Origin: Candidatus Beckwithbacteria bacterium GW2011_GWC1_49_16
Lineage (GTDB): Bacteria; Patescibacteriota; Microgenomatia; UBA1400; CG1-02-47-37
NCBI GenBank assembly: GCA_001029675.1
Contig: CP011210.1
Coordinates: 192,193 to 256,192, forward strand
Direction of reading: 5' to 3'
DNA: 64,000 bases
Under the pieces are notes generated by a model that saw nothing but the letters and a program-made list of their open reading frames with translations, did not search any database and had not been told where the DNA came from. Below are positions 6,373 to 63,269 of the stretch, piece after piece. The position numbers were made by a program, and so were the translations under genes. Position 1 is the first letter of the stretch, and every line of letters starts with the position of its first letter.

Positions 6373-6436
6373 AGATTTTTGATAAGTTGTGGTATAAAGT
6401 AACCTTAGTCTGCCCGAAAGGCGGATTTTTAGTATG
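6371..6436 (+). promoter_or_regulatory. conserved ~65-bp 5' leader (copy A) with tataaa box and CUGCC-CGAAA-GGCGG hairpin plus U-run immediately before ATG
   Basis: Near-identical to 6922..6988: gttgtggtataaa(g/c)taac...agtctgcccgaaaggcggatttttagtATGG. Confidence 0.4.
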
Positions 6437-6892
6437 GCGCCGGAGATTTTTTACCCAGACAATGATAGAGTCAAAGAATTGTCATTTCAACCGAGTCAGA
6501 GTTATTTAGGAATAGATTTAAAAGCTGAAGGAGGGGTTGATACAGAAGCAATTGATGACTTTGGAGTAGAAGTGGGTAAGCATATTGCTGGAACTTTAAC
6601 TCTTAAGTATGTGGTTGTGGAGGATTTAATGTTTGTTTTTTCGGGAAACGTTCAACACCTTGATTTTTGGAATTCAGCCGTAAAATTGACAGATCTAAAA
6701 ATTCAGGCAGCAGGGTTGTTGGTTTTACCTGATGAGTCCAACAGATTTGGTCTAAGAATGTTACGAAATGAGGCTCCAAGTATGGTGGGCAAGAATCTTT
6801 TTTTTGAGAGAGAATCGAAAGCATATACTGAGAAAGTTATCATTCCAGGCCTAGGTGAGGGGTTTTTATTATCAGAGCTTGGCGTTTTATAA
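6434..6892 (+). CDS. hypothetical protein
   Basis: 152-aa ORF directly downstream of conserved leader copy A. Confidence 0.35.
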   Translation: MAPEIFYPDNDRVKELSFQPSQSYLGIDLKAEGGVDTEAIDDFGVEVGKHIAGTLTLKYVVVEDLMFVFSGNVQHLDFWNSAVKLTDLKIQAAGLLVLPDESNRFGLRMLRNEAPSMVGKNLFFERESKAYTEKVIIPGLGEGFLLSELGVL

Positions 6893-6921: not shown

Positions 6922-6988
6922 TAGAGTTTTTGGGCAGGTTGTGGTATAAACTAACTCAAGTCTGCCCGAAAGGCGGATTTTTAGTATG
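6922..6988 (+). promoter_or_regulatory. conserved ~65-bp 5' leader (copy B)
   Basis: Direct repeat of 6371..6436 ending at the ATG of the 6986 gene. Confidence 0.4.
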
Positions 6989-7708
6989 GGATTTGAAACA
7001 CAATCAGGATTACCAGGAAAACCACAATTTGGCTGGGATTCTCCTGCGACTCAAGAGGCGGTGGAGCGAGCCAAAAAAGCCACGATAAGGAAGATAGGTA
7101 AAGGAGAGTTGAAGTTAAGTTTGGGGCAGGGAGGTGGAGAGAGGGTTGTTAGCTATAGTTCAGGAATTAAGGTTGGGTTACCTTTGGAAGATGTAGCCAA
7201 GATTGCCCCGGGTAGGGACGGAAGTTTGTCTGTCGGCCGAATGCATTTAATGAGCCAATGGTTGAGGGCTTTTAACCTTTATGATTTGAGTTTTGATTCT
7301 GATTCAGAGAGTGTAAGAGTTATTAAAAACTTTAGATCTTCAGTGACGCTTGGAGGGTTCAGGCCAGCAGTGGATGTAATGGTGGGCGCTAGCGACTACC
7401 ACCATGGCGGAGTAAAGTTACCCGATGGTTATTGGTTTCTTAATAGCGCCAGAAGGGTTATTGGCGGGTTGATGCTGTTTTATGAGGGTGAGGATTTCGG
7501 CGCAGTGAGGGATAGGGGTTTCTTAGTGGTACAGCAAGGCGAGGATAATAAAACCGTGGCTGCTTTTCCGGACTACATGGGTCGACTTTGGCCGGTGCCG
7601 TTTGCGGAGCAGACAGGGCCTGGCCTGAAGAGGATGTTTGAGGAGGGAGGAGCTTTGGCAGCTTGGAATCCGGTGATAGGGGTTTGCGATCCGGAATTTA
7701 AAACATAA
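6986..7708 (+). CDS. hypothetical protein
   Basis: 240-aa ORF downstream of leader copy B. Confidence 0.4.
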   Translation: MGFETQSGLPGKPQFGWDSPATQEAVERAKKATIRKIGKGELKLSLGQGGGERVVSYSSGIKVGLPLEDVAKIAPGRDGSLSVGRMHLMSQWLRAFNLYDLSFDSDSESVRVIKNFRSSVTLGGFRPAVDVMVGASDYHHGGVKLPDGYWFLNSARRVIGGLMLFYEGEDFGAVRDRGFLVVQQGEDNKTVAAFPDYMGRLWPVPFAEQTGPGLKRMFEEGGALAAWNPVIGVCDPEFKT

Positions 7709-7763: not shown

Positions 7764-10310
7764 ATGAGTTTTGACCATAATAAAATCGAAGCCAAGTGGC
7801 GGAAGAAATGGCGGGAGTCTGGGCTATATAAGGTAGACCTTAAAGGCGCCAAAAAGCCCTTTTATAACTTAATGATGTTTCCATATCCTAGCGCCGAAGG
7901 GCTTCATGTGGGTAACATGTACGCTTTCACCGGGGCGGATTTTTACGGCCGGTTCCAGGCGATGCGGGGGCAAGAGGTGTTTGAGCCGATTGGGCTTGAC
8001 GGTTTTGGGATTCACAGCGAAAACTACGCCATCAAGATCGGCGCCCACCCGTCGCAGCAAGCCAAGGTGAGTCAGAAGCGCTTTTACGACCAACTATCCC
8101 GCATCGGTAACCGCTTTTCCTGGGAACAGCGTTTGGAGACTTACGATCCCGAGTACTACAAATGGACCCAGTGGCTGTTTATCAAGATGTTTGAGAAAGG
8201 GTTGGCGGTCAGGAAAAAATCGATGGTCAACTGGTGCCCGAGCTGTAAAACGGTTCTGGCCGACGAGCAGGTCGAGGGCGGGGTGTGTGAGCGGTGTAAG
8301 ACGCCGACGGTGAGAAAAGAGACCTATCAGTGGTTTTTCAAGATTACCGACTATGCCGACAGACTGCTTGGTAACATCGACAAGATCGACTGGCCGCAAA
8401 AGATTAAGACCGCCCAAAGGAATTGGATTGGTCGCAAAGAAGGCATTAACATCACTTACGAAATTAAAGGCAGCAAAAAAACAGTCACTTGTTTTACAAC
8501 CACGCCGGTGAATTTTGGCGCCACTTTTATTGTTATTGCTCCTGAACATGTGTTAGTAAAAGAAAGTAAGAACAAAAAAATCCAAGAATATGTCACTAAG
8601 GCACTGAAAAAAACTGAACAGCAGCGACAAATGGAAGGAAAAGAGAAAACCGGCGTTTTCACCGGGCTTTATGCTGTTAATCATGTCACCAAAAAAGAAA
8701 TTCCCATTTGGGTGGCAGATTTTGTCTTAAAAGACGTTGGCACTGGGGCGGTTCAGGGTTGCCCGGGGCATGATTTACGCGACTTTGAGTTTGCCAAGAA
8801 GTTTGGATTGCCGATTACACGGGTTGTGGTTGGTCCTGATGGGGACAGAAACGAAATTACCAGAAAGGAGCAAGTGATTCAGTCGGGAACGTCAGGAAAA
8901 ATGGTAAATTCAGACTTTTTGAACGGTATGGAGTTTAGTAAAGCAATGCAAAAAACCATGGATTACTTTGAAGAAAGGGGTTGGGGCGAAAGAGTGATTA
9001 GTTTTCACCTGCGCGATTGGCTCATATCCCGCCAACGCTACTGGGGGCCGCCGATACCGATGATTTTTTGTGATAAGTGCGAATGGCAGCCGGTGCCCGA
9101 GAAAGATTTGCCGGTGGAGTTGCCGTTCGTCAAAGACTATCAGCCTTTGGGCGAGGGTAAGGCGCCTTTGGAGAAAGCCCCGAAAGAGTGGCTTGAGGTC
9201 AAGTGCCCGAATTGCGGCGGGAAAGCCAGAAGAGAGACAGACGTCTCGGATACTTTTCTAGACTCAAGTTGGTATTTTTTACGTTATCCTTCGATTAAAT
9301 CCAATAAGGACAGTCTTCCCGGTACCGGAAAGACTGTCCTTAGGGAAAAACTGCCGTGGGATCAAGAGGTCACACGGCGCTGGCTGCCGGTCAACGCCTA
9401 CATTGGCGGCGCCGAGCACGCGGTGTTGCATCTTCTGTACTCGCGCTTTGTCTGGATGTGTTTAAGAGATTGGGGGTATTTGCCCAAAAGCCTGGGTGAC
9501 GAGCCGTTTCCGTTTTTGTATTCCCACGGCCTGTTAATCAAAGACGGTGCCAAGATGAGTAAAAGCCGCGGCAACGTGGTTATTCCTGACGAGTACATGG
9601 AAAAATTCGGCACCGACGCTTTGCGGATGTACTTGATGTTTATCGGCCCCTACGACCAGGGAGGGGATTTCCAAGATACGGGGATGATGGGGATGAGGAA
9701 GTTTTTGGATCGGGTGTGGCGGTTGGTGATTGCCATCCAGGACACTCCCGGAGTGAAAAATTCTGCCACTCCGGGAGTGTCTGAGGTGGGTCGCTTCCGG
9801 CATCAGACGGTAAAAAGAGTTACCCAGGCCATGGAAAACTTGCGCTACAACGTCGGTATCGCCGCTTTGATGGAGTATGTTAACTTCTTGGAATTTCACC
9901 TTAGATTACTCACTCCCGGAGTGAAAAATTCCTCCACTCCGGGAGTGGTTGTGGAAGCCGTCGAAACTTTAGTATTGCTGCTGGCGCCAATGGCACCGTT
10001 TATCAGCGAAGAGATGTGGCAGATGCTGCGCAAATCCGAAGCACGAAGCACGAAATTCGAATCCGTCCACCAGCAAGCTTGGCCGACTTTTGACGAAGAG
10101 AAAGCGCGCGCCGATAAAGTTGAAGTGGTGGTCCAGGTTAATGGCAAACTGCGCGCCCGGTTGAGCCTTGGTCGAGACGAAGCCCAAGACAAAGAGCAGG
10201 TGTTTAAGGCAGCCAAGTCAGAGGCGGCGGTCAAAAGATACCTTGAGAACAAAAAGCCGGTCAAGGAGATTTTTGTCAAGGGCAAGCTGGTTAACCTGGT
10301 GGTTAGATAA
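7764..10310 (+). CDS. leuS: leucyl-tRNA synthetase
   Basis: 848 aa with a class I HIGH-type motif (HVGN) and KMSKS (GAKMSKSRGN). Carries two in-frame palindromic inserts (TPGVKNSATPGV, TPGVKNSSTPGV) and a heptamer-repeat insert (SEARSTKFES). Confidence 0.95.
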   Translation: MSFDHNKIEAKWRKKWRESGLYKVDLKGAKKPFYNLMMFPYPSAEGLHVGNMYAFTGADFYGRFQAMRGQEVFEPIGLDGFGIHSENYAIKIGAHPSQQAKVSQKRFYDQLSRIGNRFSWEQRLETYDPEYYKWTQWLFIKMFEKGLAVRKKSMVNWCPSCKTVLADEQVEGGVCERCKTPTVRKETYQWFFKITDYADRLLGNIDKIDWPQKIKTAQRNWIGRKEGINITYEIKGSKKTVTCFTTTPVNFGATFIVIAPEHVLVKESKNKKIQEYVTKALKKTEQQRQMEGKEKTGVFTGLYAVNHVTKKEIPIWVADFVLKDVGTGAVQGCPGHDLRDFEFAKKFGLPITRVVVGPDGDRNEITRKEQVIQSGTSGKMVNSDFLNGMEFSKAMQKTMDYFEERGWGERVISFHLRDWLISRQRYWGPPIPMIFCDKCEWQPVPEKDLPVELPFVKDYQPLGEGKAPLEKAPKEWLEVKCPNCGGKARRETDVSDTFLDSSWYFLRYPSIKSNKDSLPGTGKTVLREKLPWDQEVTRRWLPVNAYIGGAEHAVLHLLYSRFVWMCLRDWGYLPKSLGDEPFPFLYSHGLLIKDGAKMSKSRGNVVIPDEYMEKFGTDALRMYLMFIGPYDQGGDFQDTGMMGMRKFLDRVWRLVIAIQDTPGVKNSATPGVSEVGRFRHQTVKRVTQAMENLRYNVGIAALMEYVNFLEFHLRLLTPGVKNSSTPGVVVEAVETLVLLLAPMAPFISEEMWQMLRKSEARSTKFESVHQQAWPTFDEEKARADKVEVVVQVNGKLRARLSLGRDEAQDKEQVFKAAKSEAAVKRYLENKKPVKEIFVKGKLVNLVVR
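9743..9779. repeat. palindromic element CACTCCCGGAGTG-aaaaattctgc-CACTCCGGGAGTG, in-frame in leuS
   Basis: Exact inverted 13-mers separated by 11 nt. Translated as TPGVKNSATPGV. Confidence 0.9.
9911..9947. repeat. palindromic element CACTCCCGGAGTG-aaaaattcctc-CACTCCGGGAGTG, in-frame in leuS
   Basis: Second copy 168 bp downstream of the first. Translated as TPGVKNSSTPGV. Confidence 0.9.
10033..10066. repeat. heptamer-type simple repeat insert (CGAAGCA x2.5) in leuS
   Basis: aaatccgaagcacgaagcacgaaattcgaatccg encodes SEARSTKFES. Related to the inserts in argS and truB. Confidence 0.7.
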
Positions 10311-18760: not shown

Positions 18761-20113
18761 TTAAATCAGGGAAGAGAGCAGGAATAAAAACAGCAGCCCC
18801 GGTTGAAGCGTCAGGGGGTAGTGATCGAAAAGGCCGAGGAAGAGAAGTAAGCCGTAAAGCGTAATCGGTAAGCTGTAATTTTTAGATTTTATCGCCCGGT
18901 AGAAAGGAGAAAAGATCAAGTAAAGGAAGCCGGCCAGTCCCAAAATTCCGGTTTCGGCCAGGATCAATAGATAGACGTTGTGGACCGGTTGTAAAAAGCG
19001 GGTGGTGGCGGGAATTAAGCCGTAGCGGTCCATGATGACGGTGAAGTTGTTCAGTCCGACCCCGGTGAGCGGGGATTCTTTAACCATGGACAGGGCCATT
19101 TGGGTTAACTGCGACCGGCGGCTGAAGGAAGATTGGGGGGCCAAAAAGCTCAAGTTTTGGGCAAAGACCAAAAACAGCAGTAAAACTCCGGCGTAGAAAG
19201 CGACTAGCTTGACAGCAACTGATTTCACTCCCGGAGTGAAAAATTCCTCCACTCCGGGAGTGGGATTACTAAGCCGGTCCTGCCAGAAAGAAAAGCGGGG
19301 CAGGTCTTTGATCAGGGCCAACTGTTTGGCGCGGAGCTTTTGTTTGAGCGAGTCGGTTTGAAGCAAAGTTGCTGCCGGCAGGCCGATTAACAAAAACCCC
19401 AGCCAGGCGGAGAGGGAAAAGGTGAGGAATAAGCTGGCTACGCCAGCGGTAATCAGTAATCCGTAATAGGTAGTGCGTAAAAAGTTGACCTTCAAGGATA
19501 AACCCTGAAGGTGCTGGCGGATAACTAGCGGCAGGGTGACGGCCAAAAAGCCGCCTAGAACGTTAGGATGGGGAGTGGTGCCCAAAGGCGGGACTTTGAG
19601 CGAGCCGTCAAACCAGGTGATTTTGTCGATACCCGGTGTCGCGTCGGTGTAGGGTTGTTCGCCCAGAAACCAAAAGCCAAAGATTGAAGACTGGTTTAAC
19701 CATTGAGTCAGAGCCAGAAGCGATTGGAATAAAACCGCCAGGCTTAAGGTTTTGGCAATTGAGGGAAGGTGGATTTTAAGGTCAATGTGGCGGCGGATCC
19801 AGAGGCTAAAAAGAGATAGCTCAAAAAATTTAAGCCATTTGTAGGCGGCCGGCACGAACGAGGCGGAAAAAATTACTGAAGGTAAAAGTAAAGCTAAAAA
19901 AACGGCCGTGGGGCCACGACCTTTTGGTCGGGACGAAGAACTAAACCACAGGCCAAGAAGTAAGAATATGAGAAAGTCGGTAAGATAGACGGTGGGGACA
20001 AGATAGTCGACCAGGGTGCCGGAGACGTATGATGAGGGCAGAATAAAGTGACGGGCAAGATTAGTGGGCAGAAGAAAGAGGATTAAATAGAAAAGCCGGT
20101 ATTGCCAGACCAT
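18761..20113 (-). CDS. polytopic membrane protein, possibly O-antigen ligase/polymerase-like
   Basis: More than 10 predicted TM helices. Contains in-frame palindromic element (TPGVEEFFTPGV) and two GTAANNN heptamer repeats (ITLYGLL, TTYYGLLIT). Confidence 0.35.
   Translation of the reverse strand: MVWQYRLFYLILFLLPTNLARHFILPSSYVSGTLVDYLVPTVYLTDFLIFLLLGLWFSSSSRPKGRGPTAVFLALLLPSVIFSASFVPAAYKWLKFFELSLFSLWIRRHIDLKIHLPSIAKTLSLAVLFQSLLALTQWLNQSSIFGFWFLGEQPYTDATPGIDKITWFDGSLKVPPLGTTPHPNVLGGFLAVTLPLVIRQHLQGLSLKVNFLRTTYYGLLITAGVASLFLTFSLSAWLGFLLIGLPAATLLQTDSLKQKLRAKQLALIKDLPRFSFWQDRLSNPTPGVEEFFTPGVKSVAVKLVAFYAGVLLLFLVFAQNLSFLAPQSSFSRRSQLTQMALSMVKESPLTGVGLNNFTVIMDRYGLIPATTRFLQPVHNVYLLILAETGILGLAGFLYLIFSPFYRAIKSKNYSLPITLYGLLLFLGLFDHYPLTLQPGLLFLFLLSSLI
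18844..18871. repeat. (GTAANNN)x4 heptamer repeat
   Basis: gtaaagc gtaatcg gtaagct gtaattt. Encodes ITLYGLL in a TM helix. Confidence 0.6.
19226..19262. repeat. palindromic element CACTCCCGGAGTG-aaaaattcctc-CACTCCGGGAGTG, in-frame in membrane protein gene
   Basis: Identical to the second leuS copy. Read on the minus strand as TPGVEEFFTPGV. Confidence 0.9.
19448..19482. repeat. (NGTAATN)x5 heptamer repeat
   Basis: ggtaatc agtaatc cgtaata ggtagtg cgtaaaa. Confidence 0.55.
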
Positions 20114-26379: not shown

Positions 26380-27525
26380 TTAATACTTGAAATTTAAGCT
26401 CGGTTGGCGGTCGAGCTTTTTAGGGTTTTTGACAAAGTCTTTTTTGAGGAATTTGAAGTAAGCAGCTACGGCGATCATGGCGGCGTTGTCGGTGAAGAGT
26501 TTTTTGGAAAAAGGCAGGTAGACGGGTAGGTTATGGCCGCGGGCGACGCGGCGCAGCTGGCGGCGGATGTAGAGATTAGAAATAACGCCGCCGCCCAAAA
26601 GGATGCCTTTAGGCTGGGTTTTTTTAATGGCAAGCTCGAGCTTGCCGGTCAAACTGTCGGCGACGGCTTTTTGGAAAGAGGCGGCCAGGTTGTGGGTGAA
26701 ATTTAAGCTAAGGGTCTGACCTTTTTTATTTTGGATGATATACAGAGCAGCGGTTTTAAGGCCGGAGAAAGAAAAGTTTAAGTCTTTGGAGTGCTGCATG
26801 GGTACGGGCAGGGGGATTTTGGCTATAGCCAGCGGCGAAGCTTTACGGGCCAGTTCCTCAATGATCGGGCCGCCGGGGTAGCCCAATTTAAGCATTTTGG
26901 CCAGTTTATCCAAGGCCTCGCCGGCAGCGTCGTCCAGAGTTTCGCCCAAAAGTTGATAACGGCCGATGGCGTGGACAAGAACAAGTTGGGTGTGGCCGCC
27001 GGAAACGAGGAGAGCTAGCAAGGGGAATTTGATAGACACACCCGGTGTGGGGGATTTCTTCACACCGGGTGTGTTGGGTAAGGCCAGGGGTGAAAGCAGA
27101 TGTCCTTCCATGTGGTTGACGGCGATTAGAGGCAGATGGAGGTAGGCGGCGAGCTTGCGGGCAGTAGCGATGCCGACTTCCAGGGCCGGGGCCAGGCCTG
27201 GGCCAACGGTGACGGCGATGGCGTCGAGAGAATCCGTCAAGGTCGGACCTTTCGCCTGCCGGCGAGCCCTGCTTGGCTGGCTGCCAGGCATTCCTTTTAA
27301 GGTCCGACCTTGCCTGCGCGCTCGCATCAGCGCCTCCCGCACCACATAGTCGATTTTTTCTTGGTGGGCGCGCTTGGCCAGATGGGGGACGACCCCGCCG
27401 TACTTTTTGTGGATGTTAATTTGGGAGGCGATGACGTTGGAGAGGATTTTGCGGCCGCGGCTGACGGCGGCGGCGGTTTCGTCGCAGGAAGTGTCGATGG
27501 CTAGAATTAAAGGCTGTTTCATCAA
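26380..27525 (-). CDS. tsaD: tRNA N6-adenosine threonylcarbamoyltransferase TsaD (Kae1/YgjD family)
   Basis: LILAIDTSCDETAAAV...GGVVPHLAKRAH N-terminal signature and GGGVISN C-terminal motif. Carries in-frame palindromic insert TPGVKKSPTPGV. Confidence 0.9.
   Translation of the reverse strand: MMKQPLILAIDTSCDETAAAVSRGRKILSNVIASQINIHKKYGGVVPHLAKRAHQEKIDYVVREALMRARRQGRTLKGMPGSQPSRARRQAKGPTLTDSLDAIAVTVGPGLAPALEVGIATARKLAAYLHLPLIAVNHMEGHLLSPLALPNTPGVKKSPTPGVSIKFPLLALLVSGGHTQLVLVHAIGRYQLLGETLDDAAGEALDKLAKMLKLGYPGGPIIEELARKASPLAIAKIPLPVPMQHSKDLNFSFSGLKTAALYIIQNKKGQTLSLNFTHNLAASFQKAVADSLTGKLELAIKKTQPKGILLGGGVISNLYIRRQLRRVARGHNLPVYLPFSKKLFTDNAAMIAVAAYFKFLKKDFVKNPKKLDRQPSLNFKY
27037..27073. repeat. 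palindromic element variant CACACCCGGTGTG-ggggatttctt-CACACCGGGTGTG, in-frame in tsaD
   Basis: Exact inverted 13-mers. Minus-strand reading gives TPGVKKSPTPGV. Confidence 0.9.
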
Positions 27526-45732: not shown

Positions 45733-46775
45733 GGCGGGGTTTTGAGGTTGACCAAGACAACGCGGGCGCGTGATTTTTGAGCCAGAGTTAGCAGCGGTTT
45801 TAGGGTGCGGCCGGCCCACTCGACGGCGGCGACGGTTTTGGTTTTGAGGCGATCTTCAAGATGAAGCTGATAAAACTCCTCGATGTGACTAAGCCGCCAA
45901 GTGTCAAGGTGTAAAAACTTGCCGAAAACTTTATAGCGGCGGAAGGGGTATTCTCTTTCGATGGTGTAGGTGGGCGAAACGATGGTTTGAGGGATTTTAA
46001 GAAACCGGCCGATGCCTTTGGCAAACTGGGTTTTGCCCGAGCCAAGGTCACCAATGAGCAAAAACAGCAAGGGTTTTTTCTGTAAATCGTTCCAGTGTGC
46101 CAGCATCAGTTTTTGGGCCAAGTCGCTTGTTTCTTGAGGAGAGTGGGTGGTAACACTTTCCGCACTCCCGGAGTGGGGGAATTTTTCACTCCGGGAGTGA
46201 AGGAGTTTAATTTTGCCTTCGCGCAGAATCAGCGGATCATCCAGAGTGGTATCGACCACGGTGGAGGCCGGGCGGCGGGGGAGTTTACCAACATCAATAA
46301 TAAAATCAATCAAACTTTGCTGTTTTCGGCTGGTGTGTTTCAAAAGTTGGGAGATGGAATAAGGCTTGGGTTTGTAGGAGACATTGGCAGAAGTGGCGGT
46401 GATGGGGCGTCCCAGCCTGCCAGCGAGCGCCAGCGCTACCGGGTGATCAGGAATGCGGATCCCCAGAGTGCCGGTTTCTGACTCCACTCCCGGGGCGACT
46501 TTGCCCCGGCCCCACGACACCACAGTCAACGGTCCGGGTAAAAACTTTCTGTATAAGTTTTTAGCAGAGGTATTTAGTTTGACATATTTTGATGCCATGG
46601 TTTGGTCAGCGACGGCCACTGATAAAGGTTTGCCTTCGCGGCGGGATTTGTAGGCAAGTAATTTGGCGACCGCCTTTTTGCTGGTGGCGTCGACGCCGGC
46701 ACCGTAACACGTTTCGGTGGGGTAGATCACCAGGCCGTGGGCTTTTAAGACTTTGACGGCTTGGGTGATTTCCAT
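45678..46775 (-). CDS. fused L-threonylcarbamoyladenylate synthase TsaC (YrdC domain) and TsaE (YjeE P-loop) protein
   Basis: N-terminus VIYPTETCYGAGVDA...GIRIPDHPVALALAGRLGRPITATSAN is the YrdC domain. C-terminus LLFLLIGDLGSGKTQFAKGI...SPTYTI...HLDTWRL is TsaE. The palindromic insert (HSRSEKFPHSGSAE) sits in the inter-domain linker. Confidence 0.8.
   Translation of the reverse strand: MEITQAVKVLKAHGLVIYPTETCYGAGVDATSKKAVAKLLAYKSRREGKPLSVAVADQTMASKYVKLNTSAKNLYRKFLPGPLTVVSWGRGKVAPGVESETGTLGIRIPDHPVALALAGRLGRPITATSANVSYKPKPYSISQLLKHTSRKQQSLIDFIIDVGKLPRRPASTVVDTTLDDPLILREGKIKLLHSRSEKFPHSGSAESVTTHSPQETSDLAQKLMLAHWNDLQKKPLLFLLIGDLGSGKTQFAKGIGRFLKIPQTIVSPTYTIEREYPFRRYKVFGKFLHLDTWRLSHIEEFYQLHLEDRLKTKTVAAVEWAGRTLKPLLTLAQKSRARVVLVNLKTPPHQKAARDITISTPKTNR
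46163..46199. repeat. palindromic element CACTCCCGGAGTG-ggggaattttt-CACTCCGGGAGTG, in-frame at the TsaC/TsaE junction
   Basis: Exact inverted 13-mers separated by an 11-nt spacer. Confidence 0.9.
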
Positions 46776-48082
46776 TACTTAAGGTTAATCGAGTACAGAT
46801 TGGGGGGCTGGTTTGAACCGCCGTTTAAGGAGGCCAGAATTATCAGCCTGGAGCCGTTGGGCCAGGGATAGGCAAAGTCGTCGGAAAAAGGGCCGGCGTA
46901 GACGGTATCCTGGTTGGTGCCGTCGTATTCACCGATAACGATTTTACCCTCCTGGACTAAAATGTAGTGGCGGGAATCGGGGAACCACTGGACGGGCTGG
47001 AAGTGAATCGGGCTGTAGCGGTGGGAAAGAGTTTCGAGGGAGGAATCTTTCACTCCGGGAGTGTCAGTTGCAGGCGCAGCTGCCAGCCAGAAATTTTTGT
47101 CTTCTTCCAAGTCATAGATGTAAATGTTGTCTTTTTCAAGGTTGCGCCTTTGAACTTGGGTGGAGGAGGCTGGTACCGGCGGGATTAAGTTCTCTGGGAT
47201 GGTAAGAGTTTCCACAGCGGTGTACATCAGCTTGTCTTCGTCGGGTGACCAGTAGACGGCTCGGGCCGACTCGGTGGCAACTTTTTGCATAAATTCGGGC
47301 AGAAGGACTAGCCGTTCGTGGTCTTTTTTATCCAAAAGCTCGTGCCATTCTGAAAGGGTTACCGGCAGCCTGGCGGTGGCGTCTTTTAGGGTGGCGATGT
47401 CATTGAGGCTTGATACGGAAAGGAGAATGTTACGCTCGTCCGGCTGATTAAGGTTGACGCTAACCAGGATTTGGGATGAGTCGGGCGACCAGGTGAGACG
47501 GGCAACGGTAAAGTCAAAGTCCGGGTGGGGCCGGGAGATTTGCCGGGGCTCGGAGTTGAAGCCAAAGGGGCGGTCGAAAAGGTCTAAAACGTAGAGGCCA
47601 TTTTTGTCGTTGGTGGTGGCGTTGCCGACGGCAAAGGCGATCTTCTGGCCGTCGGGCGAGGGGGTGAGATTTAAAGCTCCGGAAAAAGTCAGGGGTTTTA
47701 AGTCGGGGACAGAGGGGAAGAGCCGGGCGTTGGTTTGGGCGACCAGTTCTGCCTCCAAAACCAAAGTTTTTTCCCAGGGAATGTAGCCGTCTTGGGCGAT
47801 TTTGACCCGGTACTGGCCCGGGGGCAAGTTTAAGGTGTCGTCGGTGGCGGTGGTCAACTTGTCGTTTAAAAAGACGCTGGCACCGCGGGGTACGGAGTTG
47901 GCGGCGAGCAACCCCGTGCCCTGTAAGGCCCGACTAGCCAGCGACGGCCGGTAGCCCCGGGCAAGCCTGATGGCAAAGTAAGTGCCGGTGACAAAAAACA
48001 AGACGGCCACGATGACGATCAAAAGCCTTGGGGTGCGCTGGAACATGGTAGCGGTATTATACCTTAATTTATAATCAGCCAA
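46775..48082 (-). CDS. PEGA-domain plus TolB-like beta-propeller repeat protein, N-terminal TM anchor
   Basis: PEGA motif (RGASVFLNDKLTTATDDTLNLPPGQYRVKIAQDGYIPWEKTL) and repeated WSPDxxxL propeller blades. Contains a half-site of the palindromic element (TPGVKDSS). Confidence 0.55.
   Translation of the reverse strand: MADYKLRYNTATMFQRTPRLLIVIVAVLFFVTGTYFAIRLARGYRPSLASRALQGTGLLAANSVPRGASVFLNDKLTTATDDTLNLPPGQYRVKIAQDGYIPWEKTLVLEAELVAQTNARLFPSVPDLKPLTFSGALNLTPSPDGQKIAFAVGNATTNDKNGLYVLDLFDRPFGFNSEPRQISRPHPDFDFTVARLTWSPDSSQILVSVNLNQPDERNILLSVSSLNDIATLKDATARLPVTLSEWHELLDKKDHERLVLLPEFMQKVATESARAVYWSPDEDKLMYTAVETLTIPENLIPPVPASSTQVQRRNLEKDNIYIYDLEEDKNFWLAAAPATDTPGVKDSSLETLSHRYSPIHFQPVQWFPDSRHYILVQEGKIVIGEYDGTNQDTVYAGPFSDDFAYPWPNGSRLIILASLNGGSNQPPNLYSINLK
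47050..47062. repeat. solo half-site CACTCCGGGAGTG of the palindromic element
   Basis: Followed by ...gcaggcgca..., which also occurs in the spacer of the GT4 copy. Confidence 0.7.
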
Positions 48083-51020: not shown

Positions 51021-52073
51021 GTGCTAAATTTATTCACCATGGCGATGATTCAAAAAGTAGGCATAGATTTAGGCACGGCCAACTCGGTGGTGTATTTGGC
51101 GGGCAGCGGCATAGTGCTGGCCGAACCGACGGTGGTAGCGGTGACGGTGGAAGACAACCGGGTGGTGGCGGTGGGTAACGAAGCCAAAGAAATGCTGGGG
51201 AGGACTCCGGAAAACATTGTCGCTTCAAAGCCGATGCGCGACGGGGTGATTGCCGATTACGTGGTCACCGAAGCGATGTTGCGGTATTTTTTGCAGAAAG
51301 TGGCCGGGCGAAACTTGATTTTTAAACCGGACGTGATGATTTGCGTTCCCGCCGGTTGTACTCAAGTAGAGAGAAGAGCGGTTGAAGACGCCACCTACGC
51401 TGCCGGAGCCAGAGAAGTGTATATCATTCACGAGCCGTTTGCGGCGGCTTTGGGAGCCGGGGTGCCGGTGGGCGAGGCCTCGGGCAACATGATTGTCGAC
51501 ATGGGCGGCGGTTCGTCTGAAGCGGCAGTGATCTCTTTAGGCGGGGTGGTAGTGGCCAAGGGTATCCGGGTGGCCGGCAATAGCCTGGACGACGCCATCG
51601 CCGGTTTTGTCAGGAAAAAACACGGCCTGGTGGTGGGCGAGAGGATGGCCGAGGAGATAAAGATCAACTTGGGCCGAGCGTCGAGCGAAGTTGAAACCAC
51701 GAACCACGAACCACGAACCACGAACCAGAAAATGCGGGTCAAAGGCAGGGACAGCATCCAAGGCTTACCCAAATCAGTCGAGGTGACGGCAGAAGAGATT
51801 GAAGAGGCGATTAAACCTAAATTATCCCAGATCGTCGGCATGGTTAAGTCGGTTTTAGAGGAGATTCCGCCGGAGCTATCCAGCGACATTATTGATAAGG
51901 GGATTGTGATGAGCGGCGGGACGAGCCTGCTAACTAACCTGGACAAGTTACTGACTGCCGAGACCGGCGTTCCCTGCCACATTGCCGAAGAGCCGATGCT
52001 TTGCGTCGCCCGCGGCACGGGGATTGCTTTGGATAACCTGGAGCTTTACAAGCGGGCGATTAGTAAGAGGTAG
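51021..52073 (+). CDS. mreB: rod-shape-determining protein MreB
   Basis: IGIDLGTANSVVY, actin-fold phosphate motifs and GGGSSEAAV. The start may be the internal Met at ~51039. Contains (CACGAAC)x4 insert encoding ETTNHEPRTTNQ. Confidence 0.9.
   Translation: MLNLFTMAMIQKVGIDLGTANSVVYLAGSGIVLAEPTVVAVTVEDNRVVAVGNEAKEMLGRTPENIVASKPMRDGVIADYVVTEAMLRYFLQKVAGRNLIFKPDVMICVPAGCTQVERRAVEDATYAAGAREVYIIHEPFAAALGAGVPVGEASGNMIVDMGGGSSEAAVISLGGVVVAKGIRVAGNSLDDAIAGFVRKKHGLVVGERMAEEIKINLGRASSEVETTNHEPRTTNQKMRVKGRDSIQGLPKSVEVTAEEIEEAIKPKLSQIVGMVKSVLEEIPPELSSDIIDKGIVMSGGTSLLTNLDKLLTAETGVPCHIAEEPMLCVARGTGIALDNLELYKRAISKR
51698..51725. repeat. (CACGAAC)x4 perfect heptamer tandem repeat inside mreB
   Basis: The four perfect 7-mers can be read directly from the sequence. 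Confidence 0.85.
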
Positions 52074-52074
52074 C

Positions 52075-52845
52075 TTAGCGGTGTTTGACTACCAGTTTTC
52101 TGGCAGTCTTGGCAAAGTTTTTGTCGCCGATTAAGCCCTGGGCAACTTGAAAGTATTGTTCAGCTAGGCCGTATTCTTGGGCGGTAGTGTAAACTACCCC
52201 GTTAAAATACTTTTGCCTAGCCTCGGTTTCCAATCCGAACTGGTAATAGCGATTATTAGGCTGAAAGCCCCTGTCTCTTGCTTTTTTACCTAGGGTTAAG
52301 GCGTCAATCCTGTCTCCCAGAGAGGGTTTAAACTCTAAGTCATCAAAGGCATGACCTAGTTCATGGCCGGCTTTTTGGGCAAAAACCAGAAGACTTTCGC
52401 CAGAGGTGAGGCCGAAGTGCTCGGCGTATGCCTCGCGGCTTGCCAGGGCTATTTCTATTGGTTTTAGCTGACCTAAAAAGCCTGCCTTATATCTTGAGTG
52501 AGCAAAACTTTCATTGCCGGTGAGAGCGTTCATGGCGGGAAGAGTGTTAAATATTTCAACCTTAACCCCTTTAAGGTGAAGGGCATTAATGCCTCGTTGT
52601 ACTGCTTCGATTACACCCTGTTCGTAGTTGCGCCTAATGTTAGAGACAATTTGAGTTTGAAAGTTTCTTAAACGATCGATCGGACCAAGTCTTAACTCAA
52701 AAACTTTAGGGATATACCCTTCCTCAATGCCGGCGTAATGAGCAATTTGGGCAATAGGGTCTATTGAGTAAAGGTTTCTTAGGGGTTTTCTGGTGGGGGT
52801 GGTTTCGCTTTGTTTTGGAGAGGGTAGATCGCCGCGGTTGTCCAT
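52075..52845 (-). CDS. hypothetical protein with HExxH zinc-metallopeptidase-like motif
   Basis: AGHELGHAFDD. Confidence 0.35.
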   Translation of the reverse strand: MDNRGDLPSPKQSETTPTRKPLRNLYSIDPIAQIAHYAGIEEGYIPKVFELRLGPIDRLRNFQTQIVSNIRRNYEQGVIEAVQRGINALHLKGVKVEIFNTLPAMNALTGNESFAHSRYKAGFLGQLKPIEIALASREAYAEHFGLTSGESLLVFAQKAGHELGHAFDDLEFKPSLGDRIDALTLGKKARDRGFQPNNRYYQFGLETEARQKYFNGVVYTTAQEYGLAEQYFQVAQGLIGDKNFAKTARKLVVKHR

Positions 52846-52922
52846 AGGTAAATTTTACCACGACCATCGATTTACTTTCCCCCTTGACAATTTTCACGCG
52901 GGTGTGCGACACTTAAATATTG

Positions 52923-53456
52923 ATGTTTGCCAGAATGAAATACAAATGGCTTAAAAACAAGAAAAAGATTTTAGGGTTTGGTGGGCTTTCGGTGGCAGTA
53001 GTCGGCTTGGCAGTAGGGGTATCTTTAGTCCAAAGAAGTCAAAGACTCGAAAGTCAAGCTAGAAGTGAACAGGTAAATCCGTGCGGGTACGGACTGGATT
53101 GTACCGACAAACCCATTACAGGAGCAACGAGTTGTGTTGATCAATATGGAGGAAATTCTTACTGTTGTCCGGAAAACTCTATTAGGTGGTACGGAGCCTG
53201 TGTGGAGAAATGTGGGTCGGGCTTAAGCTGTTGGGATTATCCTGTCCAGGGTGCTTCTCGCTGTATTGTTATTACTAACAAGATAACTGAGACTTACTGT
53301 TGTCCAAAGGATAAGCCATGGAACCTAAATGGCGTTTGCAACCCGGCGCCTAGACGTTTTCGTCCTAACCCAGTCAATAAACCGACATCTTCTCCAGAAG
53401 GAGAGTCGGGAGTTCCTGGATTGCCGGAAGTGTCGGGCCAACCCATTCCTCTATAG
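52923..53456 (+). CDS. small secreted Cys-rich protein, paralog A
   Basis: Signal peptide MFARMKYKWLKNKKKILGFGGLSVAVVGLAV. 12 Cys in the mature part (CCPEN...CCPKD). Confidence 0.5.
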   Translation: MFARMKYKWLKNKKKILGFGGLSVAVVGLAVGVSLVQRSQRLESQARSEQVNPCGYGLDCTDKPITGATSCVDQYGGNSYCCPENSIRWYGACVEKCGSGLSCWDYPVQGASRCIVITNKITETYCCPKDKPWNLNGVCNPAPRRFRPNPVNKPTSSPEGESGVPGLPEVSGQPIPL

Positions 53457-53531
53457 AGTTAGTTTTTTACACACGGTTGATTACTTTCCCCCTTGACAAT
53501 TTTCACGCGGGTGTGCGACACTTAAATATTG

Positions 53532-54023
53532 ATGTTTGCCAGAATGAAGTTTAAGTGGTTAAAAAACAAGAAAAAGATTTTAGGGTTTGGCGGGCTTTCG
53601 GTAGCGGTGGTGGGACTGGCAGTAGCTTTAACAGCGCTTCAAACAGGGGGTTTGGATATCCGCTCTCTGGCTTCTCCACCAAAAACCAATGAGTTCTGTG
53701 AAGTGATAAGAAAAAACGACCCGAATTGTGAAAGAGTCCCCAGCAAATTAAAAAATTGCTGTCAGTCAACACCTTCGCCATCACCGACACCGACACCATC
53801 ACCGACACCTTTAGTATCCCCAACACCTGGAGACGGGAGTTTACCAGCTTGTCCAGCCGGAACAGATGCTGATAGATGTATCGATGTTGACCAGCCGAAT
53901 GATATTGTTGGAGGGGTTTGTTTGTCTGAAATTGATAGTGGAGAAACAACTTATACGGCCTGTTGCGCTGAAGGGAAGAAGCCGGTTTATGATTTTGACA
54001 GTGCTAAGTACATCTGCCAGTAG
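53532..54023 (+). CDS. small secreted Cys-rich protein, paralog B
   Basis: 5' region and signal peptide near-identical to paralog A, then a divergent Cys-rich mature domain with a (SPTP)n linker. Confidence 0.5.
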   Translation: MFARMKFKWLKNKKKILGFGGLSVAVVGLAVALTALQTGGLDIRSLASPPKTNEFCEVIRKNDPNCERVPSKLKNCCQSTPSPSPTPTPSPTPLVSPTPGDGSLPACPAGTDADRCIDVDQPNDIVGGVCLSEIDSGETTYTACCAEGKKPVYDFDSAKYICQ

Positions 54024-54067
54024 TTAGAAAAGATTAGTGGTTTCTGCGGGCGGGGAGGGGAAGTGAG

Positions 54068-55147
54068 CTAGGCAAGAAAATAGGTGTTAAGGGTAAACCG
54101 GTATTGTTCCAGGAATAATCTCTTGACGTGGTATAAGTTGTTTGTTTCATAAAACAAAATCAGGGCTTGTTTGTATTCGTTCTCATCGAGACTGCGGTAC
54201 GACAAAGGGAAATAATCGTTAGCCAAAAGGATGGCGTTGGCAATCATCCTGGCCGTGCGTTTGTTGCCATCGGCAAATGGCTGGATATAGGCAATCAAAG
54301 TAGAGGTCAGTGAGGCTTTTTCCAAAGGGTAATCGATGGCGTTAATGGTTTTAAGCGTCTGCTCCAGAGTCTGTCTAATCTGCCACTGGTTCCCCGGCGG
54401 CTGATAAGTAGTTCCGGTAATGCCCACCGCCTGCTTTCTCATGCCGCTGCCGATGTTTAAGTTTTTGGTGAGCGTGTTGTGGAGCTCTAGTAGGTCGGTA
54501 AGGGTTATTTTTTTAAACTCCCGTCTGTGGGCGACAATAGTCTTAAAAGCATCTTTATGATTCAAAATCATGATGGCTTCCTCTTTGGTGCGGCCGCTAG
54601 CCTCCTGACCCTGCTTGATGAGTGTCTCTGTCTCCAGTAAGGTATAGGTGTTGCCTTCGATTTTTGAAGATTTCCAGGAAAGTTCAATCACGTAGCGCTC
54701 GAGTTCACGATTAAGAATGGCGGGTTCAAGGGTTTTGGTCGCAGCGGTGAAGGAACGGGAAATGCCAGTCAGTTCTTGGCGCTCTTGAGAAGTGATTATT
54801 CCCGGTAGCCTCTCAAATATGTCGGTGGTAAACGATTTTAGGACGGATTTTCGCTCGTCAGGGTTAAGGGTAAAATATTGTTCCAGGTCAACGTAAGTGA
54901 TTAAGGGATGAACGTTTTTAGCCCGGTAGACGCGGCTGGGCCCACTGCCAGCGGCAACTGCCAGTCGGTTTTTGATAAGATGTTTTAAGTCTCTGGCCAG
55001 GGTGGCTTTGGAAACAGCAAAAACCGAGGGTAACTTGGCCGCTATTTGTTCCCGGGACAATTCGGCCTGTTGAGCGAAGAGGTTGAGGATGGATTTTTGC
55101 CTGTAATTAAGTGATATCGTCTCATTCATACTGTCTAATCGTCTCAT
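54068..55147 (-). CDS. Fic/DOC family protein with N-terminal wHTH; degenerate Fic motif (QPFADGNKRTAR)
   Basis: Canonical HPFx[DE]GNGRxxR appears as YIQPFADGNKRTARMIAN, with the catalytic His replaced by Gln. Confidence 0.6.
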   Translation of the reverse strand: MRRLDSMNETISLNYRQKSILNLFAQQAELSREQIAAKLPSVFAVSKATLARDLKHLIKNRLAVAAGSGPSRVYRAKNVHPLITYVDLEQYFTLNPDERKSVLKSFTTDIFERLPGIITSQERQELTGISRSFTAATKTLEPAILNRELERYVIELSWKSSKIEGNTYTLLETETLIKQGQEASGRTKEEAIMILNHKDAFKTIVAHRREFKKITLTDLLELHNTLTKNLNIGSGMRKQAVGITGTTYQPPGNQWQIRQTLEQTLKTINAIDYPLEKASLTSTLIAYIQPFADGNKRTARMIANAILLANDYFPLSYRSLDENEYKQALILFYETNNLYHVKRLFLEQYRFTLNTYFLA

Positions 55148-55190: not shown

Positions 55191-56354
55191 ATGATAATCG
55201 GCATTGATGCGTCGAGGGCGTATAGCAAAGACCGGGCCGGGGTGGAGAATTATTCCAATGAGTTAATCTGGGAGATGGTCAGGTTGCCGGAAGCAAAAAG
55301 CCATCAGTTTCGGCTTTATGTCCGGGCGGGGGCAAAGGTAGATGATGAGGTGAGGGGAAAAGAAAATGTCGAGGTAGTGGAGATCCCCTGGCCGAGGTTG
55401 TGGACGCAAGGGGGGTTGGCGTTGGAGTGTTTGGTGCGGCCGCCGGACGTTTTGTTTATTCCGGCTCACACTTTGCCGGTAATAAGAAGGTCGAGTTTGA
55501 AAACAGTGGTCACCATTCACGGCGTCGAGTACGAGTATTTGCCCGAGTATTACCGTTGGCCGCAAAAACTTTATCTTAATCGTTCCACCGAGTACGCGGT
55601 TGAGAGAGCCGACAAAATCATTGCTGTTTCCAATTGGGTTAAAAAGGAGTTGGTTAGTCGCTTAGGAGGGGATGAGAAGAAGATTCAAGTGATTTATGAG
55701 GGGGTAGGAAGAAGGTTTTTGGCCGCGGCAGAAACGGGACTTAATAAAAAGTTTTTCCGCCAAGTCAAGCACAAGTACGGTTTGCCGGACAGCTACTTGT
55801 TGTTTGTGGGCACAATCCAGCCGAGAAAGAACCTGGAGAAGTTGATTGAGGCGTTTGCGAAGGTAATACACTCCGGGAGTGTGCCGCAGGCGCAACACCA
55901 CTCCGGGAGTGAACCGCATTTAGTCATTGCCGGGAAAAAGGGCTGGATGTACCAGGAGATTTACGCCGCGCCGAAAAAGTTTGGCGTGGCCGACAAGGTC
56001 AAGTTTATCGGCCGGGTGGCCGATTACGACTTACCGGCGGTTTATCAAGGGGCGGAGGCGCTGGTTTATCCGAGTCTAATGGAGGGTTTTGGCTTGCCGG
56101 TGTTGGAAGCGTTTACTTTAGGCATTCCGGTTATCACTTCCGATCGCGGAGCGCTAAAAGAAGTCGCGGCCGCCGCCGCTTTACAGATAGATCCGGAAAA
56201 TGTCAGTCATTTAGCAGACGCGATCGGTTTGGTGCTAAAAAACCGGCAGTTGCGCGAGGGTTTAAGGGAAAAAGGCCTGGGACGGGCTCGAGAGTTTTCT
56301 TGGCAAAAAGCCGCCCTAGCCACTTTGAGCCTGGTCACCGATGTGGTAAAATAG
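55191..56354 (+). CDS. glycosyltransferase family 4 (GT-B)
   Basis: GTIQPRKNLEKLIEAF and YPSLMEGFGLPVLEAFTLGIPVITSDRGALKEV (the EX7E region). Carries a palindromic-element variant encoding HSGSVPQAQHHSGSE. Confidence 0.85.
   Translation: MIIGIDASRAYSKDRAGVENYSNELIWEMVRLPEAKSHQFRLYVRAGAKVDDEVRGKENVEVVEIPWPRLWTQGGLALECLVRPPDVLFIPAHTLPVIRRSSLKTVVTIHGVEYEYLPEYYRWPQKLYLNRSTEYAVERADKIIAVSNWVKKELVSRLGGDEKKIQVIYEGVGRRFLAAAETGLNKKFFRQVKHKYGLPDSYLLFVGTIQPRKNLEKLIEAFAKVIHSGSVPQAQHHSGSEPHLVIAGKKGWMYQEIYAAPKKFGVADKVKFIGRVADYDLPAVYQGAEALVYPSLMEGFGLPVLEAFTLGIPVITSDRGALKEVAAAAALQIDPENVSHLADAIGLVLKNRQLREGLREKGLGRAREFSWQKAALATLSLVTDVVK
55869..55911. repeat. palindromic-element variant: CACTCCGGGAGTG x2 in direct orientation with 17-nt spacer, in-frame in GT4 gene
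   Basis: cactccgggagtg-tgccgcaggcgcaacac-cactccgggagtg. Confidence 0.8.
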
Positions 56355-62387: not shown

Positions 62388-63269
62388 TTACAAGCACTGG
62401 CCGGTGCAGCGGTTAAGACAAATCGACCGGGATCCGGGCAGAATGCTTAGCTCGGGGAAGAGAGTGAAGACGGCATCGCACTGGGCGCTACAAGCGTTAC
62501 AGCTGATGCCGCCTAGGCTGGCCGAACCCCCTGGAATGCCCTCCCCGCCGATACCGTTAGTCGCATTGGATGCGTCTTGTGAGACAGTTGAGGTAGTTGT
62601 GGATGTGTCACTGCTGGTTCCTGTACAACTGGCTTGGTAGACCGCCAAAGCGGTTTGGCAGTTGGCTTGTTGGGCTCTTTTGCCGTATTTACAAAAAGGC
62701 ACCCCGGCGTCTTTGGCAATAGTAAAAGCCAGAGCGCTGCAGTCGTCGTTTCGGGGCAGGTCAAAAGAGCCGCAGCCTTCGTCGTGGAGCCTTTGGTAGC
62801 ATTCCTGAAACTTAACATCATCGCAGGGGACGGGGTAATTACAGGAGCCGCCGCTGCACAAAGAGGTGCCGCTTTGGCACGCTTGGGGGACGTTTCCCGG
62901 CGGCGGGTTGCCTCCGGATGAGCTGGGGGGGTCTTGGGGTGGAGGGTTATTATCAACGCAGCTCCAGCCATTACCACCATATTCTCCAATTGAACAGCGT
63001 TGTCCGTCACCGCATTCCTCAACCTTATTCCAATCACCGTTTTTACATTGAAAGACAGCGCTAATCCCTCCGGGCCTGTTGCAAGCAAAGGCGCCTTCTA
63101 AGTTGTCATTACAGCTTGCCGCCGGAGAATTTATGCCACCCGCCAAAGATCTGGTCCGGGTGGGGGACTGGGCAAGAAGGTAAGCAAAGCCGAGGCCGGC
63201 GACCAAGACCAGGCCGATGACAGCTTTGAGTAAAACGGAGAGCTTCTTGAGCCTATAAAACAGGGCCAT
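62388..63269 (-). CDS. secreted Cys-rich protein (28 Cys) inserted between nusG and rplK
   Basis: Signal peptide/TM LLKAVIGLVLVAGLGFAYLLA, then repeated C-x-C/G-rich modules with a PPPQDPP linker. Confidence 0.5.
   Translation of the reverse strand: MALFYRLKKLSVLLKAVIGLVLVAGLGFAYLLAQSPTRTRSLAGGINSPAASCNDNLEGAFACNRPGGISAVFQCKNGDWNKVEECGDGQRCSIGEYGGNGWSCVDNNPPPQDPPSSSGGNPPPGNVPQACQSGTSLCSGGSCNYPVPCDDVKFQECYQRLHDEGCGSFDLPRNDDCSALAFTIAKDAGVPFCKYGKRAQQANCQTALAVYQASCTGTSSDTSTTTSTVSQDASNATNGIGGEGIPGGSASLGGISCNACSAQCDAVFTLFPELSILPGSRSICLNRCTGQCL

Follow-up and report, generated by a model that had tools for sequence, protein, structure and literature searches.

How two neighbouring genes come to begin almost identically and then continue into protein bodies that cannot be aligned is the question raised by a locus of Candidatus Beckwithbacteria bacterium GW2011_GWC1_49_16, a member of the Patescibacteriota. 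The locus lies in a 64,000-nucleotide (nt) stretch of contig CP011210.1 (assembly GCA_001029675.1, positions 192,193 to 256,192 of the forward strand), referred to here as the window. The two genes, named A and B, are adjacent, share a 5' module of 145 nt and encode small cysteine-rich proteins. On balance, and with moderate confidence, we favour reading the pair as a mosaic of Sec-exported, disulfide-rich surface proteins in which the 5' end of B was copied from A.

The 5' module common to genes A and B

A direct-repeat search of the window returned a two-copy family, 52872-53016 against 53481-53625, which spans 145 nt at 91% identity with a spacing of 609. The two copies, the invariant block at the head of each and the two genes are placed as follows (aa, amino acids).

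52872..53016, + strand: 5' module copy 1, upstream DNA and first 31 codons of gene A (direct-repeat family, alignment)
52872..52939, + strand: 68-nt block copy 1, 100% identical to 53481-53548, with TTGACA at 52884-52889, candidate ATGs at 52923 and 52935 and the imperfect palindrome CACGCGGGTGTG (alignment)
52923..53456, + strand: gene A, 177 aa, AKM79030.1 / KKU35206.1; other gene callers start it at the ATG at 52935
53481..53625, + strand: 5' module copy 2, upstream DNA and first 31 codons of gene B (direct-repeat family, alignment)
53481..53548, + strand: 68-nt block copy 2, with TTGACA at 53493-53498 (exact identity to copy 1)
53532..54023, + strand: gene B, 163 aa, AKM79031.1 / KKU35207.1; alternative start ATG at 53544

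A first-pass annotation made from the letters of this DNA had described a near-identical, duplicated 5' module of about 145 bp with a shared TTGACA (52884 and 53493), start codon and leader, and the repeat found here reproduces that description with limits within 3-4 nt of those first proposed. The leader peptide of both genes reads MFARMK(Y/F)KWLKNKKKILGFGGLSVAVVGLAV. The part shared by A and B comprises the first 31 codons together with 51-63 nt of upstream DNA, and similarity between the copies stops abruptly at both borders. Within the window, exactly two occurrences of a 35-nt core of the module were found, against none in 100 shuffles. The gene order of the locus is identical on 23 of 23 independent contigs read, so the duplication is no assembly artefact.

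Identity is unevenly distributed across the repeat, with 0 differences in the first 68 nt and 13 in the next 77 (Fisher p = 1.9e-4). These 13 differences amount to 10 synonymous codon changes and 1 conservative replacement, Y7F (Tyr7/Phe7), and by this codon comparison the leader peptide is shown to be under strong purifying selection. The same pattern bears on the coding status of B, which we accept as a real gene because its leader copy carries the synonymous changes and is followed by a further 132 open codons, an extension whose probability by chance we estimate ourselves, rather than with any tool, at about 0.002. Codon usage is uninformative on this point, the confirmed gene A also scoring like non-coding DNA.

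Following the first-pass annotation, further copies of the module were sought. In a word-indexed search of 5.8 billion proteins, A and B retrieved only themselves and each other, linked via the leader, and no near-identical 5' module beyond these two was found there or in the window; the genome does hold a third paralog with a diverged leader, described below. An exact 23-mer gave 0 matches in collections of genomes and metagenome contigs, a result that is uninformative because these collections lack this population, and the same 23-mer was found twice in a locus (L001) of a Joint Genome Institute sample. Searches of the collections with tail, module and leader patterns yielded no confirmed loci.

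A family of six-cysteine modules

Downstream of the shared leader, the two proteins carry 12 (A) and 10 (B) cysteines, as first counted. The layout of A is a Lys-rich N-terminus, a hydrophobic helix, two six-cysteine modules and a Pro-rich tail, located as follows (HMM, hidden Markov model; pLDDT, predicted local distance difference test).

52971..53039, + strand: hydrophobic helix of A, residues 17-39, signal-peptide core or membrane anchor (AlphaFold2 helix, hydrophobicity scan)
53079..53204, + strand: six-cysteine module 1 of A, residues 53-94 (38.1 bits with an HMM built without A or B; pLDDT 87-96)
53208..53339, + strand: six-cysteine module 2 of A, residues 96-139 (38.3 bits with the same HMM)
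53394..53453, + strand: C-terminal tail of A, PEGESGVPGLPEVSGQPIPL, with the counterpart PEGESQVPGLPTVSGKPYPL in paralog C (alignment with paralog C)

Each module of A spans about 45 residues with the spacing C-x4-C-x10-C-x9-CC-x10-C and is modelled as beta-hairpin; modules 1 and 2 are 36-39% identical to each other. Neither A nor B has a match in Pfam (E <= 1) or NCBIfam, and PADLOC and PHROGs returned nothing relevant. An exhaustive phmmer search of 1.84 billion (1.84e9) representatives, in contrast to the word-indexed search, gave 21 matches at E < 1e-3, A and B included, and the others align with the Cys-rich part of A, some also with its hydrophobic helix. P0015 aside, the module is present in 18 of the 18 other matches fetched, in 1-8 tandem copies each, and the family thus found comprises about 20 protein clusters. 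An alignment of 44 modules has six invariant cysteines, a near-invariant Pro after the CC pair and the consensus PxCGxGLxC-x6-GAxxC-x9-YCCPxGxxIxxGxCV, and both modules of A fit the family spacing C-x4-C-x10-11-C-x9-10-CC-x10-11-C as well as the motifs CGxGLxC, GA(S/T)xC and YCCPxG. The family HMM built without A or B recovers the full sequence of gene A at E = 6e-24, and among 770 six-frame open reading frames (ORFs) of the window the module HMM has gene A as its sole match (E = 5e-21). Gene A is thereby shown to be a regular member of an undescribed six-cysteine module family.

In the AlphaFold2 model of A computed with the family alignment, residues 17-39 form a helix and the Cys-rich region is predicted to consist entirely of beta-hairpins at a pLDDT of 87-96; a single module is likewise modelled as all beta (pLDDT 88). 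The module profile found nothing among PDB sequences at E <= 10, and Foldseek searches of the PDB with the A model and the single-module model gave no significant match, the nearest being pairs of Plasmodium EGF-like modules (E 0.2-1). Across 20 family members, the only domains recognised by Pfam are fused ones, namely Peptidase_M23 (P0013), Dockerin_1, DUF4214 (P0025) and RsbR_N; the module itself has no Pfam model in any of the 20 and no NCBIfam counterpart. The module is a coherent domain that is undescribed as far as the searched libraries show.

Named members come from Cystobacter fuscus and C. ferrugineus (annotated "lipoprotein"), Labilithrix, Myxococcales and Polyangiaceae. The modules sit behind a lipoprotein signal in Myxococcota and behind an N-terminal membrane helix in genomes taken to resemble those of the candidate phyla radiation (CPR). 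Some of the CPR-like members lie near sortase, cohesin and dockerin genes, and cohesin or dockerin genes recur near module genes more generally, or the dockerin is fused. In the Myxococcota-like protein P0013 (locus L004), an M23 peptidase is followed by three modules at the place where such enzymes usually carry a wall-targeting domain, and P0014 and P0027, which are 36% identical, are both encoded directly upstream of a LysM or LysM-M23 gene (L003 6001-7685; L005 220-1527). These arrangements suggest that the module is linked with M23-type cell-wall hydrolases.

Three known kinds of module invite comparison. EGF-like modules such as those of Plasmodium MSP1-19 and Pfs25/Pfs28 resemble the module of A in having about 45 residues, six cysteines and two beta-hairpins, and in occurring in tandem in membrane-tethered extracellular proteins; they are also the top Foldseek matches, with a template modelling (TM) score of about 0.5 on the module, at E-values of 0.2-1 that are not significant. 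EGF-like domains have the connectivity C1-C3, C2-C4, C5-C6. The module differs from them in its adjacent C4C5 pair in place of C-x-C and in having no Pfam EGF match. The LysM and SH3b wall-targeting modules of M23 peptidases are matched in position, three modules of P0013 taking the targeting domain's place and two relatives adjoining LysM or LysM-M23 genes, whereas the module has no sequence or fold relation to them, no M23 gene lies beside A or B, and wall binding by the module is putative.

The third comparison concerns "structure-only" pacifastin-like domains, which have been reported from Myxobacteria and CPR (Sci Rep 2026, PMC13388995) and whose signature is an Asn right after Cys2, forming a C2-N-C3 core, and a Gly in the C4-C5 loop (PMC13388995). 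It is conceivable, if improbable, that the six-cysteine module serves as a scaffold for protease inhibition or regulates M23 peptidoglycan hydrolases, and it may then correspond to these reported domains. Both occur in the same unusual pair of taxa (PMC13388995), both are small six-cysteine domains rich in beta structure and found in short secreted proteins, and relatives adjoin or are fused with M23 peptidases. Yet the module has neither the C2-N-C3 core nor the C4-C5 loop Gly, a distinction drawn from the described signature, and with C4 and C5 adjacent and no Asn after C2 it cannot accommodate that signature. We also rejected membership of the pacifastin family proper (PF05375), given the adjacent C4 and C5, the missing Asn, the lack of a Pacifastin_I match in Pfam, and the absence of any pacifastin structure from the top 50 Foldseek PDB matches.

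The leader, like the module, follows a pattern of the family. In A and B, it has a positively charged, Lys-rich n-region and a hydrophobic core that forms a helix of 21-23 residues, and its only GG sits inside the helix. In an alignment of 12 N-termini of family members, A46 is invariant and G21, G28 and Q40 are nearly so. By these sequence features, the leader is a Sec-type signal or anchor of a design common to other CPR-like members of the module family. A candidate S-x-A cleavage site lies about 10 residues past the hydrophobic stretch, at residues 44-46 in A and 45-47 in B, and S-L-A motifs likewise follow the helices of other exported proteins of the window. The bacterial lipobox L-x-x-C is absent from A and B, whose first cysteines are residues 54 and 56, respectively; the Myxococcota relatives carry lipoboxes. 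A further exported Cys-rich protein of the window, encoded at 62388-63269 on the minus strand (293 aa, 22 Cys, no Pfam match), has a leader of similar design, Lys-rich with one helix and then a Q and RSLA about 10 residues later.

The first-pass annotation had likened a conserved leader before Cys-rich payloads to bacteriocin- or effector-like families, a reading for which no support was found. In such a scenario, A and B would be precursors of bacteriocin-like peptides or secreted toxins whose leader is removed on export, the peptides would hit competitors or hosts, and the HExxH protein encoded next door would process them or confer immunity. Small tandem Cys-rich products with a shared leader and a neighbouring HExxH protein are what one might expect, and class II bacteriocins with double-glycine leaders indeed share with A and B the tandem small genes and the conserved N-terminal part before variable Cys-containing bodies. 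A and B, at 163-177 aa, are three to four times longer than those peptides, however. Their Sec-type leader lacks a double-glycine motif in the usual context, the body of A is conserved, and both this design of leader and the module are also found in lipoproteins and large multidomain surface proteins. The surrounding +/-6 kb contain no ABC transporter, C39 peptidase or immunity-like gene, no Pfam bacteriocin model matched, and PADLOC, PHROGs and NCBIfam offered nothing. A bacteriocin or toxin function is therefore, in our judgement, highly improbable.

A search of the neighbourhood for an immunity or processing gene likewise came back empty: the neighbours of A and B encode MreB, the HExxH orphan, a Fic protein and a GT4 glycosyltransferase. 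The HExxH protein is a neighbour for which no link to A or B was shown.

52075..52845, - strand: HExxH protein, HELGH at 52351-52365, divergently oriented

It has no export signal, being absent among the window ORFs with an N-terminal hydrophobic segment, and no detected homologs: no match was found in Pfam, NCBIfam, PADLOC, PHROGs or PDB, and a large homology search yielded no sequence at all; even the query was missing, despite its gene being called in public assemblies.

Origin of the shared 5' end

Whether B is an old copy of A or an unrelated gene with a borrowed start depends on what follows its leader. The first 31 residues of B are as in A (97% identical) and lead into an orphan body with these parts.

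53697..53762, + strand: N-terminal four-Cys cluster of B, C-x9-C-x9-CC (read from the sequence)
53766..53828, + strand: Pro/Thr/Ser linker of B, including the hexanucleotide repeat CACCGA x4.7 at 53782-53809
53850..54017, + strand: C-terminal six-Cys domain of B, C-x8-C-x13-C-x13-CC-x16-C, in the module's Cys order (HMM, hhalign, profile tests)

No relative of B was found in any database searched, PDB sequences included. The name it bears in databases, "Peptidase S1, chymotrypsin", is unsupported and looks like an annotation artefact. The trypsin-fold catalytic domain of that family has about 220 aa and a His-Asp-Ser triad; B has 163 aa in total, no protease match in Pfam or NCBIfam and no PDB relative. 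The CACCGA tract of the linker is possibly prone to slippage, and the sole population variant of B (P0008) differs within the linker (P91Q, P97T).

The first-pass claim that the genes diverge completely beyond the leader holds in statistical terms. The best BLASTP match between the bodies of B and A has E = 1.7, the module family HMM scores B at -1.6 bits, hhalign gives a probability of 0.4%, and alignment of their mature-coding DNA scores no better than that of shuffled sequence (global z = -0.8, local z = -0.3). The claim needs qualification at one point, the C-terminal domain of B, which keeps the module's Cys order C-C-C-CC-C with different spacing (x8, x13, x13, x16) and without the module's motifs. 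In a Cys-anchored profile alignment, this domain beats full shuffles (p = 0.017) but not shuffles with the cysteines kept in place (p = 0.12). What B has in common with the module thus comes down to a shared order of cysteines, with no further demonstrable likeness.

This residual likeness is what a whole-gene tandem duplication followed by runaway divergence would have to explain. B would then be an extremely diverged copy of A in which module 1 has degenerated to C-x9-C-x9-CC and been cut by the Pro/Thr linker, the loops of module 2 have expanded, and selection preserves the leader only, the ectodomain being under diversifying selection, for example through interaction with a host or phage. 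The adjacency and common orientation of the genes, the Cys order and its p value against full shuffles, the spacing of the N-terminal cluster of B, which equals C2-C3-C4C5 of the module, the retention in B of the invariant Ala about 10 residues past the helix, and the 10 synonymous changes against 1 replacement in the leader all fit such a history. Set against these are the residues other than cysteine, which add nothing (p = 0.12), the HMM and hhalign scores given above, and the limited synonymous divergence of the leader. Only 10 of its 27 third positions differ (K about 0.5; 6 of 12 fourfold-degenerate sites), an age at which neutral DNA should have kept about 50-63% identity; the bodies retain no DNA similarity at all. 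Population variants of A and B are 98-100% identical, with no sign of hypervariability. We consider descent of B from a whole-gene duplication unlikely.

A third gene of the same genome provides a yardstick for how fast leader and body diverge together.

L007-L009 6001-6777: paralog C, AKM78761.1 / KKU60658.1, same genome as A and B

Paralog C lies directly downstream of a prenyltransferase-family (UppS-like) gene, beside a mevalonate operon. It has a diverged leader, two copies of another Cys-rich repeat (C-x8-C-x5-C-x5-C-x14-C-x6-C), one six-Cys module and a tail. A and C are 52% identical over the leader and juxtamembrane residues 21-49 and 43% identical over module 2 and the tail, including PEGESxVPGLPxVSGxPxPL at the C-terminal end; the match of B to C, in contrast, is weak and confined to the hydrophobic stretch. 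The tail is better conserved between A and C than the module is, which suggests, at the level of sequence, a functional C-terminal motif, and P0024, a 98% variant in the cluster of C (P0024/P0035), is the single phmmer match that also covers the tail of A. Since A and C are related along their length, the native arrangement is probably that of A, with leader, juxtamembrane stretch, module and tail in this order. Leader and body have diverged to the same extent between A and C, whereas between A and B a 97% identical leader is followed by a body that cannot be aligned. Because the A-C leader has diverged as much as the rest, the 97% identity of the A-B leader does not come from constraint alone, which speaks further against whole-gene duplication.

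The picture of a conserved leader joined to hypervariable Cys-rich payloads, drawn in the first-pass annotation, stands only in part. The proteins are Cys-rich, with exported-type N-termini and bodies that differ in A, B and, more loosely, C, but the payload of A is a conserved module present in distant taxa. Near-identical 5' regions or signals before unalignable mature parts are familiar from conotoxin-type superfamilies and from families of bacterial surface-lipoprotein paralogs. Here, by comparison, only two genes carry the identical module, the one further paralog is distant, and one payload is conserved.

Under copying of the 5' end of B from A, B would have acquired or retained that end when the gene next to it was partially duplicated or when conversion took place between the two, and later conversion, or constraint at the nucleotide level, would have kept 68 nt identical. 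The two genes would thereby have their signals for transcription and translation in common, as well as the helix for targeting or anchoring. As A and B share upstream signals and the targeting helix, we infer co-expression and co-localisation, the two proteins probably being made together and placed at the same site.

What keeps the 68-nt block identical admits two answers. Function, and not recent gene conversion, may hold the block identical, which would then act as a promoter with a regulator's operator or as a translation start with a short leader or none. The contrast between 0 differences in 68 nt and 13 in 77 (p = 1.9e-4) points in this direction, as does the end of identity 5 nt past the second ATG (Met5), the start chosen by other gene callers (P0004, P0007). 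The block also contains TTGACA and the imperfect palindrome CACGCGGGTGTG, which resembles the CACNCCSGGNGTG palindromes dispersed in the same genome, and another neighbouring gene pair has a common 68-nt upstream block. Real promoters and operators, on the other hand, rarely constrain all of 51-63 non-coding positions. No sigma-70-like -10 stands at canonical spacing behind TTGACA, neither a canonical sigma-70 promoter nor a terminator was found, and no significant RNA fold was detected (z = 0.54). The block is absent upstream of paralog C, elsewhere in the window and from all other fetched loci, and conversion between tandem repeats is the simpler explanation. Functional retention of the block is therefore possible but, to us, doubtful.

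Several points weigh against copying of the 5' end and against the picture of A and B as envelope proteins. The argument from unsaturated synonymous sites uses 27 codons (6 of 12 at fourfold sites) and only marginally excludes saturation, which leaves some probability to an old duplication whose leader was strongly conserved. The Cys order of B (p = 0.017), together with its juxtamembrane match to the invariant Ala, would fit a true paralog that has diverged very far. The DNA-level search for copies of the 68-nt block covered the window, which is part of a 1.05-Mb genome, and the fetched loci. Members of the module family other than the named ones are classed as CPR-like from their A-like leader design and gene context. 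The leader of A and B may be either cleaved, with A46 in A and A47 in B as candidate sites, or kept as an anchor. Lastly, the link to M23 and LysM proteins comes from distant relatives and is weak at this locus, where the neighbours are MreB, the HExxH orphan and Fic.

Two side observations concern the block and its palindrome. A second neighbouring gene pair of the window has a duplicated 68-nt upstream block, at 6370-6437 and 6922-6989 (87% identical), so duplicated 5' blocks before adjacent genes recur in this genome. This block contains TGGTATAAA and the hairpin GTCTGCCCGAAAGGCGGAT followed by TTTTT, and its similarity stops at the start codon. The ORFs behind the two copies, of 152 and 240 aa, are not recognised by Pfam and do not obviously resemble each other. 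The 13-nt palindrome CACNCCSGGNGTG occurs in 15 copies in the window against 0.04 expected, mostly in pairs 24-30 nt apart, at these sites.

3121-3157: CACNCCSGGNGTG palindrome site
9743-9779: CACNCCSGGNGTG palindrome site
9911-9947: CACNCCSGGNGTG palindrome site
19226-19262: CACNCCSGGNGTG palindrome site
27037-27073: CACNCCSGGNGTG palindrome site
46163-46199: CACNCCSGGNGTG palindrome site
47051-47063: CACNCCSGGNGTG palindrome site
55869-55911: CACNCCSGGNGTG palindrome site

Copies appear to lie inside long ORFs, among them LeuRS (where the translation reads TPGVKNSATPGV), a Sua5-TsaE fusion, between its two domains, and a GT4 glycosyltransferase (HSGS...HHSGSEPH), and they could represent small palindromic elements that entered the coding sequence of protein linkers in frame.

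Possible roles and genomic surroundings

Attachment to other cells is the way of life of CPR bacteria, whose surface proteins are for the most part uncharacterised. A and B have exported-type N-termini and even numbers of cysteines, the beta-hairpin fold of A is confidently modelled, and relatives are tethered by a helix or a lipid anchor. In the envelope, the modules probably serve for binding or as spacers, and they are possibly connected with M23-type peptidoglycan hydrolases. Their disulfides would be made by a system of the MdbA/VKOR type; CPR genomes have been reported to be enriched in an MdbA-like oxidoreductase, often encoded beside VKOR, for disulfide formation outside the cytoplasm (preprint 10.1101/335083).

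A bolder proposal, which we regard as fairly improbable, joins all these elements. The 145-nt module would be a portable expression-and-export cassette that this reduced genome copies before different Cys-rich bodies to obtain new surface proteins, much as in exon shuffling; the identical GxxxG-like helix would join A and B in a heteromeric surface complex; and CPR and Myxococcota would share, in the six-cysteine module, a new EGF-like domain of bacteria that targets or regulates M23 hydrolases.

Disulfide-rich extracellular repeat proteins and paralogs with shared 5' regions are both known kinds, and the locus does not challenge current understanding. It offers a clean example of two adjacent genes for surface proteins whose common expression and export signals probably go back to partial duplication or conversion, together with a recurrent six-cysteine repeat module that is outside the domain databases and solved structures and links CPR-like genomes with predatory Myxococcota. 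The module is of use for domain annotation and as a candidate for adhesion or cell-wall binding.

Two observations concern the surroundings. The HExxH, A, B and Fic genes (52000-55000 of the window) have a G+C content of 0.43-0.49 against 0.50-0.58 in the flanks, and this low-G+C stretch may be accessory. The Fic-domain protein beside gene B, encoded at 54068-55147 on the minus strand, has an N-terminal helix-turn-helix and matches the SoFic defence model of PADLOC (71 bits) and several PHROGs families.

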